DNA of 60,666 nt from Candidatus Saganbacteria bacterium (GCA_016939335.1 JAFGHC010000027.1:1-60666); one strand, 5' to 3'. Shown: positions 19,010-51,798, counted from the first letter of the stretch. The notes: generated from the letters alone by a model not told the origin. Made by a program: numbers and translations.

Positions 19010-19588
19010 CTATTTAGGTTGCCCCAACTGCCTTTCCAGAAAATCCAATGACCAGACATAATCCTTATAATCAACTTCGGCTAACTTACTCAAAAATCTC
19101 AAAGCTAGCTCTCTATCAATTTTCTTAAATTCAAAACTATGAACGATCACGCTCATAAGCTTTTTTCCCAAGGTCTCTTTTTCAACCAGCCTGGCATATG
19201 CTTCAAGCTGTTTGGCATCAAGTACCCCCACATCGGGGAAAGCCACGGCTTGCTCGACCGTCATCCGCCCAATTTTTTCGGGAGTTATCCGTTTCACTTC
19301 TTCGGCGGTCAGCGTCTTTATTACTTCAGGGGTAAGCGCTTCTACCGGAAGATTCTCGATCTGCGCGTTTTTTTGCAGTTTTTTCACGTCAGCCAGCGAT
19401 ATCCCGCCAGCGGCAAAGCGGAAGACCGGGCCGACGCCCGGCAGCTTACCCAGGGTTCCTCTAAGCGGGCCTTCCGCCCCAAACACGGCCCGGGCCGCGC
19501 GGGGATACCCTCTGCGCGCCAAACCAAGCGCCGCTCTTTCCAGGCCCGCCTGCAACCGGAAGCCGACCCGCTCCATTCTTATCGCCAT
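19010..19588 (-). CDS. ORFan behind a sigma28-like promoter, with T-x-E 8-aa repeats
   Basis: GGAGG RBS; LTPEVIKT-LTAEEVKR-ITPEKIGR-MTVEQAVA. Confidence 0.65.
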   Translation of the reverse strand: MAIRMERVGFRLQAGLERAALGLARRGYPRAARAVFGAEGPLRGTLGKLPGVGPVFRFAAGGISLADVKKLQKNAQIENLPVEALTPEVIKTLTAEEVKRITPEKIGRMTVEQAVAFPDVGVLDAKQLEAYARLVEKETLGKKLMSVIVHSFEFKKIDRELALRFLSKLAEVDYKDYVWSLDFLERQLGQPK

Positions 19589-19628
19589 TTTATCTGCCTC
19601 CTAAGTTCATCTTCGCCCCGTCATTTGT

Positions 19629-19655
19629 TTATCGGCCCCCCGTTTGAAAAATTTC
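19629..19655 (-). promoter_or_regulatory. sigma28/FliA-like promoter
   Basis: GAAATTTT-N11-GCCGATAA. Confidence 0.75.
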
Positions 19656-19678
19656 ACTTAATTTGTTAATATAACTAA

Positions 19679-20214
19679 CAACACGTCCGCTAGAAACCTT
19701 TAAGTGACCGGCGGACTACGACACGGTCCGACTGCGCCGGACCTACAACTAACAACTTCCGGAGGCGTTAGCGTGTCCTTCAGATTCCTAGATTTCCCGG
19801 TCTACAAAGAAATCAAAAAATACATTGGAGATGTTTACTCGCTCTCCTCAAATTTCCCCAAAGACGAACAATTTGGCTTAACCAATCAATTGCGCCGGGC
19901 CGCGACCTCGATCGCCCTGAATTTGGCCGAAGGATCGGACCGGGGTTCGGACCAAGACTTTAAACGCTTCATCCAAATGGCCATTGGGTCGGTGAACGAA
20001 ACGGTCGCAGTTTTAGATATTGCTCTTGAAATGGGCTTCATTAGCCAAGAAAATTACGCTATAATAATAAAGAAAGCTGAAAGCATTGTTAAGCAATTAT
20101 CCGGTTTTCGGCAATCTTTAAAAGGCCGTTAGTTGTTAGTTGTAGCGAGGCCGCCGCAGGCGGACGAGCGTGTCGTAAGTTGTCAGTCGTAGTTCGCCGC
20201 AGGCGAACGTGTTG
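19679..20214. mobile_element. IVS-like element: nested inverted repeats enclosing a four-helix-bundle gene
   Basis: Pairs 19743-57/20131-45 (15 bp perfect), 19717-25/20169-77, 19679-86/20207-14, with side hairpins. Confidence 0.7.
19773..20132 (+). CDS. Four helix bundle protein (23S rRNA IVS / TIGR02436-like)
   Basis: F.DFPVY, FPKDEQFGLTNQLRRAATSIALNLAEG, F.RFI.MAIGS..E; GGAGG RBS with GTG start. Confidence 0.92.
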   Translation: MSFRFLDFPVYKEIKKYIGDVYSLSSNFPKDEQFGLTNQLRRAATSIALNLAEGSDRGSDQDFKRFIQMAIGSVNETVAVLDIALEMGFISQENYAIIIKKAESIVKQLSGFRQSLKGR

Positions 20215-20218
20215 ATAC

Positions 20219-20291
20219 GCGGGAGTAGCTCAGTTGGTAGAGCATCACCTTGCCAAGGTGAGGGTCGCCGGTTCGAGCCCGGTCTCCCGCT
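20219..20291 (+). tRNA. tRNA-Gly (GCC), CCA not encoded
   Basis: GCGGGAG acceptor stem, D-arm AGCTCAGTTGGTAGAGC, anticodon loop TTGCCAA, GGTTCGAGCCC T-arm. Confidence 0.97.
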
Positions 20292-20357
20292 TTTAACTTG
20301 TAACTTACGAACTTATAACCAATAACTGAAAGAATAACTGAAAGGGGAAATTTTATT

Positions 20358-50400: not shown

Positions 50401-50951
50401 GCCGTCAAGCGGACCGTCCTTTTTTTATAAACAAAGTCAAGCCGGTCGGTAACTTTCACATCGCGGCTGATCGCTTCGGCGGTCGCGGCGTCGGGAACGA
50501 GCAGGGCAAAATGCGGCCCGTCGCGGACGATCACAATCTCCTTGGCCGGGAGGCCGTGAGATTCAGCCACCCGGCGCAGATGCTTGCTGAAACCCACCAG
50601 ATAATAATCGCCGGCATCATGGGAAACAGTGTCATTGATGTATTTCAGTCCCGAAAGATTGACCACCAGCCAGCGGGCCGGCCGGCCGGCGGCGAGCATT
50701 TTTTGGGTGTGAAAAACGTGAGCGTCCGAAGAGAACGCGCCGGTCCGGTCAAGCTTGAAAACCGGCTCGCCGACCCCGGCCGCCTTGCCATATGAAGTGA
50801 CCGGCGGCGGCGTGATCGGGACATATTTTAACTGCGGCGCTCCCGTTGCCGGATTTGCCCCTCCCCCCCCGCCAGTTTGCGGCTGTCTGGCAGCGCCGGG
50901 CGCTTCCGTCGGCCGGTAAGGATCAGTTCTATTAACACTCATTTCTGCCAT
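47466..50951 (-). CDS. Large ORFan: two degenerate GGDEF-like domains, coiled coil and hydrophobic helical bundle
   Basis: NLSGLKYINDTVSHDAGD...RDGPHFALL and EPHSGL...FFDGN...YRHGPGSEEFYLL; several Ala/Gly-rich TM-like segments. Confidence 0.65.
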   Translation of the reverse strand: MAEMSVNRTDPYRPTEAPGAARQPQTGGGGGANPATGAPQLKYVPITPPPVTSYGKAAGVGEPVFKLDRTGAFSSDAHVFHTQKMLAAGRPARWLVVNLSGLKYINDTVSHDAGDYYLVGFSKHLRRVAESHGLPAKEIVIVRDGPHFALLVPDAATAEAISRDVKVTDRLDFVYKKRTVRLTAANLGKQTLVTPGILVYDAAELAGGISDKAVYRGLREEIYYLNRPEASAGRFGREFRVGRQESGYLETFTPAFRLPNYDRIKEESRAVQAPAGSRYVEPHSGLRDNTQLGADATALLRGGRRVRFAFFDGNSVGAFRSLGFIGEAMMDAVVEVRFAQAASRAGLAEKGITLYRHGPGSEEFYLLADENVPPETMKTALADLMKELNESPFDLRVETSRLKETVLGRQYLQRFRPAVYELGGVEYVTVDLTQITRGRAGVYYRGLTVTAGFGTIELPGSSANLDVYFNREKAVLMEYGEAGKKLNPQRRNLIVEVRYDNQGKAYGLVHPLGRALADPRPIAGQNRSGLIDQSNRDGLFVRFIVDGDKLVYEVAKTDAPPVITMSAKAAFEQARAAALARIDKLPVSAAEKAEARRVAAAAWEKEWAEFEHKAAAKQAFEKDLQADYYRARALQREIKSGGLDKFVLKQKKAELAELKNRIGMKVNGFLRQHGPMMAVIIALDIAIHWDEIRKEGAGKAVKVAAGAVEGYFVFFTGLKVLENTAGAATKISPVKLGGALAAGLAALSSTVEHREHLSSSDAATKAYAALAVAVQALTAYIAASAGLAAAKVARPFGFGGQAVAGVGVGFLTFIFMETAGKTLGTDRWIGRKWTRGDIINAFHDLGARRDGSGVLAVRDQDTEIPYFSEVAKRIEVNGRTVSLTRAQAFLGILQAARNYDQLSFEERRALADQPGNRALTRLLGALGSLDRLEVGNYAELDEELLEAVADAIGRYRAKHHLPEDTSGSRTRFEVVCSNRRRVNIVNPLTGEVVGSRTFADIKVFGERQHFAMLATGNGWVSDEGTVGSYAISGPIKTEGDEQQIRAAEAILATASKAHPGTYDISLAELAALDLTIPADKLAALPVVRRDLAKQLSLLGYKADGDIVKAYLKYVLQSLDLTQPGPQGVTLNLSARQAAADPFQVNLETSVLRRLTGELLAQ

Positions 50952-50971
50952 GTTTTTGCCTTATTTATAAC

Positions 50972-50997
50972 AAAAAAGGAAGCCGTGAATGGCTTCC
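50972..50997 (-). terminator. Intrinsic terminator just upstream of the 1161-aa ORF
   Basis: Minus strand GGAAGCC-attcac-GGCTTCC-TTTTTT. Confidence 0.7.
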
Positions 50998-51117
50998 ATT
51001 AATAGCAAACGCTACCGAATGTCAGGCTCATTCAGATGGCTCTTCTTTCATTAATATAATCGTAATAAATAGGCAAATTCTTGCATAAATAAGGGGAAAA
51101 TATAAACTAGGAGGGGG

Positions 51118-51735
51118 CTAAATTTCTTGCGGGATCACTACGCCCAGCTTGGCCAGAACAGCCGCCGCATCATCCCCCACCATGCGCAGGAGCTCCATGT
51201 GAACTGTCGGTTCAAAAGCGTCGGCCCCTTTTTTCTCAACCGTCATGATCCCATGCCGGCTGTATCTTCCCTCTCCGCCCGCATCAAGCTGTCTGGTCAG
51301 CAACGGCGTAATGATGACGCTTTTTTTGCCGATCTCCCTAACTTCGGGAAACGCTTGAGGGTTAACTGCGGAAACAGCCGTCGGCCGGCCCGAGAACGAG
51401 CCGAAAACGTAAAATTTTACGCAGTCGCCTTGAGGGACATAAAAAGAATGGCCCTCCGCCAGCGCGATCGCCTGAAGATCGGACAGCCCGCCACCCCGCT
51501 CGAAACTGGCCGAGAGTTTGCCGAACAAGTACTCAAGGTCCTGCCCGATCCGCTTATAAAGCGCTTTTGCGGTCGGTATTCCCATGAGCAGTCTGGCTTC
51601 ATGACCGTGTAAAATGCCGATCCGCGCCGCCAGGTGCCGGAACTCCGGCTCAAGATGTGATAATCTCGACATTGTTCCGAACCCAAAACCAGCAAACAGC
51701 CGGCAGCCCTCACCGGAGCCCACTGAACGCAACAT
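51118..51735 (-). CDS. ORFan behind a sigma28-like promoter
   Basis: AGGAGG RBS, 205 aa, no recognisable family. Confidence 0.65.
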   Translation of the reverse strand: MLRSVGSGEGCRLFAGFGFGTMSRLSHLEPEFRHLAARIGILHGHEARLLMGIPTAKALYKRIGQDLEYLFGKLSASFERGGGLSDLQAIALAEGHSFYVPQGDCVKFYVFGSFSGRPTAVSAVNPQAFPEVREIGKKSVIITPLLTRQLDAGGEGRYSRHGIMTVEKKGADAFEPTVHMELLRMVGDDAAAVLAKLGVVIPQEI

Positions 51736-51771
51736 CGTTCCCTCCTAAAAATGACCGGACGCTTCATTAGA

Positions 51772-51798
51772 TTATCGAGAGGAGAGCGGGGAAATTTC
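51772..51798 (-). promoter_or_regulatory. sigma28/FliA-like promoter
   Basis: GAAATTTC-N11-CTCGATAA. Confidence 0.7.

Follow-up and report, generated by a model that had tools for sequence, protein, structure and literature searches.

A probable sigma-28-type promoter class and its regulon of mostly lineage-specific genes in Candidatus Saganbacteria, with a flagellar-type export apparatus encoded in the same genome

Sigma-28, one of the alternative sigma factors, is the textbook 'flagellin switch', and several described systems lie close to the one considered here. Non-flagellar regulons of sigma-28 type occur in Chlamydia and, under WhiG, in Streptomyces, both of them small, and in Campylobacter the genes for non-filament proteins exported through the flagellum are sigma-28 dependent. 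The aphid symbiont Buchnera carries filament-less basal bodies, with the export apparatus kept and the flagellin and motor genes lost, for which a role in protein export has been proposed. A polar N-terminus followed by a bilobed hydrophobic stretch is a layout known from membrane proteins exported by type III systems, such as the Inc proteins of Chlamydia. As far as the accessible parts of the cited sources extend, the sigma-28 consensus of E. coli is TAAAGTTT-n11-GCCGATAA (PMC2859248), its -10 element GCCGATAA being given in PMC12784957 as well; the late genes of Chlamydia (PMC12282069, 10.1101/322701) and the WhiG genes of Streptomyces (PMC12871210) are described as non-flagellar regulons of the sigma-28 family; and the non-structural protein FlaC of Campylobacter is secreted through the flagellum (PMC5466977). 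A promoter motif of comparable plan is described in this article from a window of 60,666 bases (the whole stretch of DNA analysed, GCA_016939335.1, JAFGHC010000027.1:1-60666) of a Candidatus Saganbacteria bacterium, together with the genes that follow the motif and the flagellar-type export genes of the same genome. This metagenome-assembled genome (G000), obtained from groundwater, is 94.9% complete with 0.16% contamination and consists of 42 contigs (C numbers below) with 58% GC. In the full-text literature on the flagella of Saganbacteria, Margulisbacteria and Termititenax, subscription journals and supplements lying outside the coverage, no description of such a system was found, and in its accessible part PMC9324843 does not treat the flagella of Margulisbacteria.

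The strict form of the motif, GAAATTT-N14-CGATAW, was scanned in the window and in the whole 1.53-Mb genome. Five matches lie in the window (marked exact in Table 1), where 0.01 would be expected, and none of 100 dinucleotide-preserving shuffles of the window gave five; genome-wide, there are 33. When up to two mismatches are allowed, 11 matches are found in the window against 4.03 expected, a number reached in one of 100 shuffles; three of them (6867+, 27591- and 51100-) are probable chance matches. Because this raw count is not significant on its own, a weight matrix was built, seeded with the 33 strict genome sites plus eight bases on either flank, and given one refinement; the third round showed drift (887 matches at a score of 12, with 39 in the control at 12), and only the first two rounds were used. 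The unrefined matrix finds 106 sites in the genome at a score of at least 20, against one in a first-order Markov copy of it, and the matrix after one refinement finds 136 at a score of at least 16, against five; overall, the matrix places the number of sites at 115-136, compared with 3-5 in the Markov control. A preliminary description of the window, made from its sequence alone, had listed eight clear copies of the motif with an exact 11-base spacer and two weaker ones. At a score of at least 22 the refined matrix recovers exactly these eight (23.6-41.1) and no other window site, five of them matching the strict pattern and three deviating by one or two bases (Table 1), whereas the weaker copies at 31878(-) and 51057(-) score below 16, are poor matches by eye and were dropped. 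Two further window matches, 8620+ and 60604+, reach a score of about 20 and are treated as doubtful.

The consensus of the sites is tGAAATTTc-N11-gcCGATAa/t. In the aligned strict sites, an A-rich tract lies upstream, T precedes GAAATTT, GC precedes CGATAA, the column just after the box favours A or T, and an AT-rich run followed by a GGAGG-like ribosome site lies downstream. Spacing that is one base shorter is rare in the genome (two matches, compared with 33). The motif shares with the E. coli sigma-28 consensus both its register (GAAATTTn-N11-nnCGATAA) and a -10 half with a CGA core; the match to FliA promoters claimed at the outset holds for the N11 register and the -10 half, and two positions of the -35 half differ. 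The motif very probably represents a promoter class of sigma-28 type, that is, a sigma-28-type regulon.

The position of the sites relative to genes is equally regular. Genome-wide they are strand-specific and lie 4-65 nt upstream of start codons, and at all eight window sites an open reading frame (ORF) starts on the same strand 6-62 nt downstream. For 112 of the 115 sites scoring at least 22, a same-strand ORF of at least 50 aa starts within 160 nt, compared with 76% of random positions; the start codon is ATG in 87% of cases at sites and 36% at random positions, and the ORF has at least 150 aa in 83% and 38%, respectively. The start codon follows the box by exactly 6 nt in 11 of 112 cases, as opposed to 1.3% at random positions, with a second peak at 9 nt (6 of 112). 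Translation starting with the seventh base behind the -10 box is as expected of a leaderless mRNA from a sigma-28 promoter, and about one fifth of the targets look leaderless; the 6-nt peak is an indirect counterpart of the transcription starts about 7 nt after the box that the preliminary description had proposed as a check. Gene calls were made with a purpose-written, crude codon-usage caller, and signal-peptide and transmembrane (TM) calls with Kyte-Doolittle windows. As a separate observation, the contig densest in the motif is C7 (53.7 kb), with 14 sites scoring at least 22, or 2.6 per 10 kb compared with a genome mean of 0.75; these sites are nearly all on the same strand, and the targets behind them include two giant ORFans (1246 and 1459 aa).

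Four sigma factors are encoded in the genome: an RpoD of 351 aa, one extracytoplasmic function (ECF) sigma and two FliA/WhiG-like proteins of 260 and 195 aa, so that the group-3 sigma factor presupposed by the first description is present in two versions. FliA_WhiG is the best NCBIfam family of both (131.5 bits for the 260-aa and 69.7 bits for the 195-aa protein), and among solved structures a WhiG-type sigma, Aquifex FliA and E. coli FliA rank as the closest relatives of the 260-aa sigma, before any RpoD. Both are conserved across the order, the longer one heading the flgB-flgC-fliE-fliF-fliG-fliH-fliI-fliJ operon in G000 and the shorter one adjoining flhA in relatives. In seven of eight fetched relatives, an ORF of about 70 aa (75 aa in G000) overlaps the start codon of the short sigma. 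Prediction of a complex between the short sigma and this 75-aa upstream neighbour gave a score of 0.79, the best of three controls giving 0.00; in calibration, 58 of the 80 solved complexes and 2 of the 110 mismatched pairs attained such a score, counts that are only rough because own alignments were used, and likeness may raise the score, because sigma/anti-sigma complexes have already been solved. At least 98% of contacts agree between runs, the pLDDT of the partner is at least 72, and in the model the partner contacts the N-terminal helices of the short sigma. The modelling thus supports the 75-aa protein as a predicted binding partner of the short sigma. Some side observations concern the same genes. 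At the short-sigma locus (G000:C35:101-1150, L093; relatives L107-L114) a second small ORF of 87 aa lies upstream and is kept in three of eight relatives, and the operon has in front of it a sigma-28-type site that is weak in G000 (score 20) and better in the relative G006 (27.3). Another sigma-28-type site, at G000:C13:4428 (-) with a score of 29.9, lies 19 nt upstream of the start of rpoD (C13:3354-4409), by which the alternative sigma may feed back on the housekeeping sigma.

The regulon defined in this way comprises roughly one gene in twelve, mostly genes without relatives outside the lineage. The 112 targets match 65 Pfam families (E<=1e-5), compared with 156 for 112 non-targets drawn at random from 236 called genes in the same fetched regions, and 99 of the 112 proteins have no paralogue among the targets. 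GC content at third codon positions is 0.628 in targets and 0.767 in other genes (p = 4e-36), and the median codon-usage score per residue is 0.157 versus 0.336. The initial picture of a regulon of ORFans without any housekeeping member is accordingly retained for the lineage-restricted, Pfam-poor majority and, as regards the absence of housekeeping genes, for the window; it does not hold genome-wide, where the targets include four nucleotidyl transferases, two starch/glycogen-synthase-type proteins, a phosphoglucomutase, a GH94 protein, a PEP-utilising (PtsP-like) enzyme, a PRPP-synthetase-like protein, an AAA ATPase, a GGDEF protein, an aminotransferase and rpoD.

A second property of the targets lies in their N-termini. 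By a crude hydropathy test, an N-terminal hydrophobic segment occurs in 4 of 112 targets, compared with about 29% of 1235 other genes, and one or more TM-like segments in 13% versus 38%. When proteins with such an N-terminal segment are set aside, residues 2-26 of the remaining targets are poor in Asp (0.50x), Glu (0.47x) and Lys (0.61x) and rich in Pro (1.57x), Ser (1.33x) and Arg (1.29x) relative to others; none of 2000 permutations gave an excess as large, and the bias is weaker further along the proteins. The Ser/Pro/Arg-rich N-termini noted in the window recur as a genome-wide tendency among the targets, and the reported absence of Sec signals is borne out statistically, with the exception of the protein beginning MTGRISTS (orf36685), which has a hydrophobic helix near residues 26-46. 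Several targets stand out as candidate export substrates. Three paralogous targets of 1402-1583 aa carry an S8 subtilase domain and FG-GAP repeats; their fervidolysin-type propeptide stands behind 30-45 polar residues, and a hydrophobic segment is missing. Proteins in which 45-120 polar N-terminal residues are followed by a bilobed hydrophobic stretch lie behind several of the highest-scoring promoters (Table 1). In the window, the AF2 model of orf26865 is all-beta (pLDDT 78.6), and its best Foldseek matches are outer-membrane beta-barrels, namely OpcA (E = 3e-5), then OmpA, OmpX/Ail and Pla. Residues 1-30 of this protein are disordered, polar and non-hydrophobic, as they are in its two closest homologues, and two of its six homologues, more distant ones, start with hydrophobic, lipobox-like N-termini. 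Seven relatives of orf26865 were found among 1.84 billion representative proteins.

The flagellar-type export genes that the preliminary description had suggested looking for are present. A flagellar type III export gate, ATPase complex, MS ring, rod, and L and P rings are all encoded in G000, in two clusters on contigs C4 and C35 (Table 1); FliP, FliQ and FliR were assigned by position and size, and the other parts by Pfam matches. FlhB keeps the NPTH autocleavage motif at residue 269 (cluster C35, 11612-21664), FliG (C4:72185-72652) has only 155 aa with fragments of the N and M domains, and the Flg_bbr_C domain occurs only in FlgC, FlgF and FlgG, with a sub-threshold match in the short FlgE-like protein. 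The families Flagellin_N, Flagellin_C, FliG_C, MotA_ExbB, FliD_C, FlgD and FlgM were not found in G000; of the flagellin, filament cap, hook cap, stator and FliG_C domain of a rotating, filament-bearing flagellum, none was thus found in this 94.9% complete genome. Its two secretin genes are located apart from these clusters, on contigs C30 and C36, and no needle, tip or translocon family turned up, no search having been aimed at such families. The searches for MotA, FliD, FlgD and FlgM covered G000, and those for FHIPEP (the family of FlhA), flagellin and FliG_C also its relatives. In 31 genomes of the order (25 genera, one genome in a single contig), FHIPEP was found in 30, Flagellin_N in one and FliG_C in none. 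Across the phylum, sampled evenly with 71 genomes, FHIPEP was found in 68 and flagellin in 14, of which one belongs to the 23 of the Saganbacteria class, kin in these counts not being independent.

All 13 flagellin-positive genomes outside the Saganbacteria class have at least two FHIPEP matches, and flagellin-less genomes have one FHIPEP gene, the two matches in G036 and G037 being pieces of a single gene. A quick maximum-likelihood tree (IQ-TREE, SH-aLRT support only, midpoint-rooted for drawing) was computed from 36 FHIPEP sequences, comprising both copies of nine flagellin-bearing genomes, seven from Saganbacteria and 11 from other single-copy genomes; the other 44 of the 71 genomes were left out, including the flagellin-bearing G053, G072, G074 and G077, with fragmentary or multiple matches, and G002. 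It falls into two clades with SH-aLRT 100 on both stems (lengths 1.28 and 1.12). One clade holds nine copies, all from flagellin-bearing genomes; the other holds 27, namely those of all single-copy genomes, the seven Saganbacteria among them, and the second copy of the same nine flagellin-bearing genomes. By this split, the window organism carries a phylum-wide paralogue of the flagellar export system, which in flagellated relatives co-exists with what looks like a true flagellum. The branching order is parallel in the two clades (loci L115-L149), as expected for vertical descent of both.

The explanation favoured overall, to which about an even chance is assigned, joins a sigma-28 (FliA/WhiG, group 3) regulon with export of a substantial subset of its products. 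The motif would be the promoter of an RNA-polymerase holoenzyme containing this alternative sigma and would be read by one or both of the conserved FliA-like sigmas, which would belong to a flagellum-derived type III export machine without filament, hook caps, stator or FliG torque domain. Since these parts are lacking, the usual late-flagellar output of sigma-28 would have been replaced; the new output would be a large, fast-turnover set of single-gene cassettes, each with its own promoter and one, often leaderless, ORF, inserted at junctions of a conserved gene backbone. A subset of the signal-peptide-less products would leave the cell through the flagellar-type export gate, the candidates being the three propeptide subtilases, the outer-membrane-barrel-like protein and the proteins with polar N-termini and bilobed hydrophobic stretches. 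The remaining targets (glycogen and sugar-nucleotide enzymes, GH94, the PtsP-like protein and rpoD) would be ordinary cytoplasmic members of the regulon; because such plainly cytoplasmic proteins are included, the regulon is broader than the 'effector arsenal' first proposed, and the host- or prey-associated lifestyle suggested along with it gains no support from the present data. For the export link itself, judged from gene content and protein sequence, a chance slightly short of even is estimated. Circumstantial support comes from a conserved gate without the usual late substrates, from the retained switch parts (FliK, and NPTH in FlhB), from propeptide proteases and a barrel-like protein without signal peptides, and from the distinctive N-terminal composition. 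A further-reaching proposal, considered unlikely as matters stand, is that the Margulisbacteria paralogue might be a third type III secretion machine, with a large sigma-driven arsenal of secreted, signal-peptide-less proteins, encoded in single-gene and often leaderless cassettes of quick turnover that would come and go at fixed chromosomal junctions, and with an FlgM-like small sigma-binding protein. It would then be a vertically inherited flagellum paralogue without filament and stator, independent of the injectisome and present in all Saganbacteria sampled, in which the small sigma-binding protein would couple completion of the machine to expression of the cargo.

Several points weigh against the favoured explanation. 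The -35 half of the motif departs from TAAAGTTT in two of its eight bases, having G instead of T at position 1 and T instead of G at position 5, and shares only AAA and TT with it. Both FliA-like sigmas score under the curated FliA_WhiG cut-off of 189.6 bits, which is passed in none of 31 relatives, and we infer from sequence, not from transcripts, that either of them reads the motif. FlgM, which the preliminary description had suggested looking for, has no Pfam family match in the 94.9% complete genome. No classical late flagellar gene was found by which the regulon could be anchored, and of the 65 Pfam families that the 112 targets match, the 25 listed include no flagellar one. Many of the identified targets are textbook cytoplasmic enzymes or rpoD; the lack of signal peptides would accordingly be expected of a wholly cytoplasmic regulon as well. 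An SLH protein and an LRR lipoprotein-like target carry Sec-type or lipoprotein-type hydrophobic N-termini despite their extracellular-type domains. The signal-peptide test was a crude hydropathy window and not a trained predictor; the N-terminal bias could partly stem from over-extended start codons in GC-rich DNA, though the control shares this weakness; and 33 of the 112 target frames were not called by the codon-usage gene caller. The barrel matches of orf26865 have low TM-scores (0.25-0.34) despite E = 3e-5 and a probability of 1.0.

In the strongest alternative, the regulon is of sigma-28 type and serves a general stress, growth-phase or carbon-storage programme, the products staying inside the cell and the machine merely housing the sigma gene for historical reasons. 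This alternative is a substantial contender, though probably not the correct account. It agrees with the list of identified targets (glycogen synthase-type proteins, phosphoglucomutase, four nucleotidyl transferases, GH94, the PEP-utilising enzyme, aminotransferase, AAA ATPase and rpoD), with the 96% of targets that, like cytoplasmic proteins, have no N-terminal hydrophobic segment, and with the existence of non-flagellar sigma-28 regulons, as described in the accessible parts of PMC12282069, 10.1101/322701 and PMC12871210. However, it leaves unexplained why propeptide subtilases lack a signal peptide, why the same is true of a barrel-like protein whose distant homologues have lipobox-like N-termini, why the acid-poor, Pro/Ser/Arg-rich bias is stronger in residues 2-26 than beyond, and why a filament-less machine with FliK and NPTH-bearing FlhB has been retained in 68 of 71 phylum genomes.

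Comparison with relatives bears on a further alternative, in which the motif has spread by copying within a dispersed repeat or mobile cassette and owes its abundance to mobility, without any regulon. A DNA search of window positions 19-39 kb against 31 relatives gave, among the 150 matches listed (234 weaker ones not among them), only core genes: the tRNA-Gly/enolase region, a four-gene ABC operon, a solute-binding protein (SBP) gene, three small genes and metS. The backbone order eno-ABC-SBP-...-metS is kept in 12 fetched relatives, in one of which (G006) the enolase gene, the ABC operon and the SBP gene follow each other directly, within 25 nt. The window has two promoter-plus-ORF units in the interval from enolase to the ABC operon and one in the interval from there to the SBP gene. 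Relatives also carry a sigma-28-type site followed by an ORF, 7 of 12 at the ABC/binding-protein junction and 4 of 12 at the junction after metS. The synteny thus upholds the claim that the ORFs are wedged between conserved operons, and the junction ORFs are not alike (BLASTP E<=0.01), except for orf22903 and its ortholog in G012 and one pair between two relatives. The 5.7-kb block listed in Table 1 is an insert in this genome, because metS and the homologue of gene 39239-40396 are immediate neighbours in 4 of 12 relatives.

That the promoter-plus-ORF units act as insertions at syntenic junctions and differ between relatives would suit a mobile element, as would the identical 27-mer that recurs in G022 and G016 and the starts of contigs C13, C24 and C17, which are common over 85-87 nt as far as the -35 box and differ beyond it. 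Nevertheless, the spacers and flanks of the 33 strict sites are unlike: the spacer columns hold 0.1-0.4 bits each, and being nearly free of information they indicate that the sites are not copies of a repeat. The proteins downstream are mostly unrelated, the distance and orientation of the sites to start codons are strict, and cassette mobility is in any case compatible with a shared sigma. The repeat explanation is therefore mostly rejected and held to be improbable. Two side observations are made on these sequences. Exact overlaps of 85-87 nt are shared by many contig ends (e.g., G000 C13:1-87, C24:1-87 and C17:1-86) and resemble forks of the assembly graph; that C13, C24 and C17 are alike up to the -35 box and then diverge suggests strain-level alternatives behind one promoter. 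One promoter sequence also recurs, identically or nearly so, at several places, often contig ends, across G022, G016 and G025, and probably belongs to a multi-copy element or gene.

The range of the motif bears on the possibility that it is the main housekeeping promoter of the lineage, read by RpoD. Each of the 31 genomes examined in the order has 5-90 strict matches, the reversed pattern giving 0-1. In the phylum sample strict matches number 3-55 in Saganbacteria, 0-2 and 5-17 in two flagellin-bearing families (f11, five genomes, and f19, six genomes) and 24 and 52 in one flagellin-less family outside the Saganbacteria class; the motif is conserved as a class across the order and has lower counts across the phylum. 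The richness of some relatives, with up to 81-90 strict matches per genome, could suggest a housekeeping function, as could the occurrence of the motif before rpoD and the resemblance of GATAAT within CGATAAT to a -10 hexamer. The core genes, however, have other promoters. Called genes have 513 upstream regions that lack the motif, and the hexamer most enriched in these is TATAAT (154 occurrences versus 24.3 expected), and regions aligned on it show a TGn extension and a T-rich or TTG -35 element about 17 bp upstream, with TTGAC(A/T) in many single cases; the flgF and fliK basal-body operons have TTGACT-N17-TATAAT/TATGAT and no sigma-28-type site. Given TATAAT-type boxes before them, the core genes use an ordinary sigma-70-type promoter, so that the motif, which would have lost its meaning had it stood equally before core genes, forms a class distinct from the TTGACA-N17-TGnTATAAT promoters of core genes and basal-body operons. 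Moreover, the codon-usage score of motif genes is half that of others, and the invariant CG before ATAA is a sigma-28 hallmark and not a sigma-70 feature, by the accessible parts of PMC2859248 and PMC12784957. The housekeeping explanation is rejected as very improbable.

That the sites are chance matches before frames that are not genes has a negligible chance of being true: some ORF of at least 50 aa does follow 76% of random positions in this 58% GC genome, and several targets have very low codon-usage scores, but the shuffle and Markov controls contradict it, the ATG share, ORF lengths and 6-nt distance peak are far from those of random positions, all three window ORFans tested have homologues, and the two modelled both fold with pLDDT 75-79.

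The window sites, their target ORFs and the other located features are collected in Table 1.

Table 1. Coordinates of sigma-28-type sites, target ORFs and associated features; window positions are given unless a contig of the genome is named
Feature	Location	Strand	Remarks
Sigma-28-type promoter	19629..19655	-	exact motif; matrix score 40.2
Target ORF, 192 aa	19010..19588	-	start 40 nt after -10 box; no Pfam match; low codon-usage score
Sigma-28-type promoter	22763..22789	-	1 mismatch (CAGATAA); score 26.5
Target ORF, 354 aa	21676..22740	-	no Pfam match; inserted between enolase and ABC operon
Sigma-28-type promoter	23586..23612	-	2 mismatches; score 23.6
Target ORF orf22903, 222 aa	22903..23571	-	no Pfam match
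Sigma-28-type promoter	26832..26858	+	exact motif; score 35.5
Target ORF orf26865, 313 aa	26865..27806	+	GTG start 6 nt after -10 box
Sigma-28-type promoter	33506..33532	+	exact motif; score 38.8
Target ORF orf33595, 224 aa	33595..34269	+	no Pfam match
Sigma-28-type promoter	36635..36661	+	exact motif; score 41.1
Target ORF orf36685 (MTGRISTS), 663 aa	36685..38676	+	no Pfam match
Sigma-28-type promoter	38785..38811	+	1 mismatch (GGATAT); score 33.0
Likely target ORF, 125 aa	38847..39224	+	ATG start; preferred over 391-aa TTG frame
Sigma-28-type promoter	51772..51798	-	exact motif; score 34.8
Target ORF, 205 aa	51118..51735	-	no Pfam match; low codon-usage score
5.7-kb block with three promoters	33474..39238		absent in 4/12 relatives
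Target with polar N-terminus and bilobed hydrophobic stretch	C7:36457-37368		
Target with polar N-terminus and bilobed hydrophobic stretch	C7:31582-31956		
Target with polar N-terminus and bilobed hydrophobic stretch	C30:26889-27158		
Target with polar N-terminus and bilobed hydrophobic stretch	C34:114066-114590		
Target with polar N-terminus and bilobed hydrophobic stretch	C7:14384-18124		
Machine cluster	contig C4		FlgF, FlgG, FlgA, FlgH, FlgI, FliA-like sigma, FlgB, FlgC, FliE, FliF, FliG, FliH, FliI, FliJ
Machine cluster	contig C35		FliK-like, short FlgE-like (274 aa), FliM/N-like, FliN, FliO, FliP, FliQ, FliR, FlhB, FlhA

None of the eight frames directly downstream of the window sites has a Pfam match at E<=0.01 (38785+ having been scanned as the 391-aa frame and not as the 125-aa ORF), in keeping with the initial observation that each clear copy stands before an unrecognisable ORF. 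The 391-aa TTG frame, which runs from 38831, is probably spurious, because it is antisense to the well-supported, signal-peptide-bearing gene 39239-40396(-). An ortholog of orf22903 in G012 (49% identity) has its own site 15 nt upstream, and a paralogue at G000:C4:50973-51719, the only one, likewise lies behind a site; the AF2 model of orf22903 has pLDDT 75 and pTM 0.78, and a fold search of it against the PDB gave no match (best E = 1.2). The GTG at 26865 is the better start of orf26865, because the alignment of homologues is conserved upstream of the ATG picked by the script, and its mRNA is probably leaderless. Directly behind orf33595 on the same strand lies a gene for a GH9 cellulase (34332-36527), which has a Pfam match and may be co-transcribed with it. 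A single homologue of orf36685 (43% identity) was found among 5.8 billion proteins; a search of the ESM Atlas gave a best score of 0.89 for unnamed clusters labelled 'DnaB' and one SLT-bearing cluster, a lead that was not used. The sequence of window positions 19001-28999 is present in one DNA run and next to absent from two RNA runs of the same study, and no RNA run is listed as containing it.

Other features of the window were noted in passing. A low-GC island at 3580-8229 (35-36% GC compared with about 58% elsewhere) looks like foreign DNA and holds an ORF of 1181 aa (4145-7690, minus strand) and two flanking ORFs of about 180 aa; the 1181-aa ORF has no Pfam match, and PADLOC gave no match for four ORFs in or beside the island. 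An ORF of 1161 aa at 47466-50951 (-) has only a sub-threshold GGDEF match (22.1 bits versus a cut-off of 23.8), and upstream of it lie one of the weak motif copies of the preliminary description and a TATAAA-like box. Tandem hairpin-forming repeats of the type GCCGC-AGGCGGAC at 20130-20225, just upstream of tRNA-Gly, resemble sequences on contigs C28, C33, C36 and C41, suggesting a REP-like family of intergenic repeats.

The significance of these findings lies in the retention of the promoter logic of sigma-28 in a class of uncultured bacteria without flagellin, stator or FliG torque domain. They yield a regulon, defined by sequence, for an uncultivated sister phylum of the Cyanobacteria, a testable candidate for a flagellum-derived secretion system that would have an origin apart from that of the injectisome, along with a set of listed cargo candidates, and a natural case of new-gene recruitment, in which promoter-plus-ORF cassettes occupy fixed junctions of a conserved backbone.

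In comparison with the FliA class 3 promoters of E. coli, Salmonella and Pseudomonas, as far as these are covered in the accessible parts of PMC2859248 and PMC12784957, the sites share a GC-preceded CGATAA as -10 element, an AAA-containing -35 octamer and the 11-bp spacing, and, as in FliA flagellar systems, a sigma gene lies among basal-body genes that themselves use sigma-70-type promoters. They differ in that the -35 element is tGAAATTT and not TAAAGTTT, that about 115-136 sites occur in a genome of 1.5 Mb and about a fifth of the targets look leaderless, that flagellin, stator, chemotaxis and hook-associated genes, none of which was found in G000, do not figure among the genes behind the sites, and that no FlgM family match exists there. 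With Chlamydia and Streptomyces WhiG the system shares a FliA/WhiG-family sigma used beyond filament building, its best solved match being of WhiG type; unlike in those regulons, more than 100 promoters are involved, mostly before lineage-specific single-gene inserts, and the sigma gene lies inside a basal-body operon.

Unlike in Buchnera, no recent decay is apparent, since the FlhA paralogue is found in 68 of 71 phylum genomes and stands beside a flagellin-linked copy in flagellated lineages, and a sigma-28-type regulon of more than 100 promoters accompanies the machine. Campylobacter has a complete rotating flagellum and exports a handful of substrates through it, whereas the export considered here is putative. 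In contrast to the injectisome, the gene set of G000 is flagellar (FlgB/C/F/G rod, FlgH/FlgI rings, FliE and FliK) and the secretins lie on other contigs; like the injectisome, it would represent an export gate related to that of the flagellum and serving secretion rather than motility.

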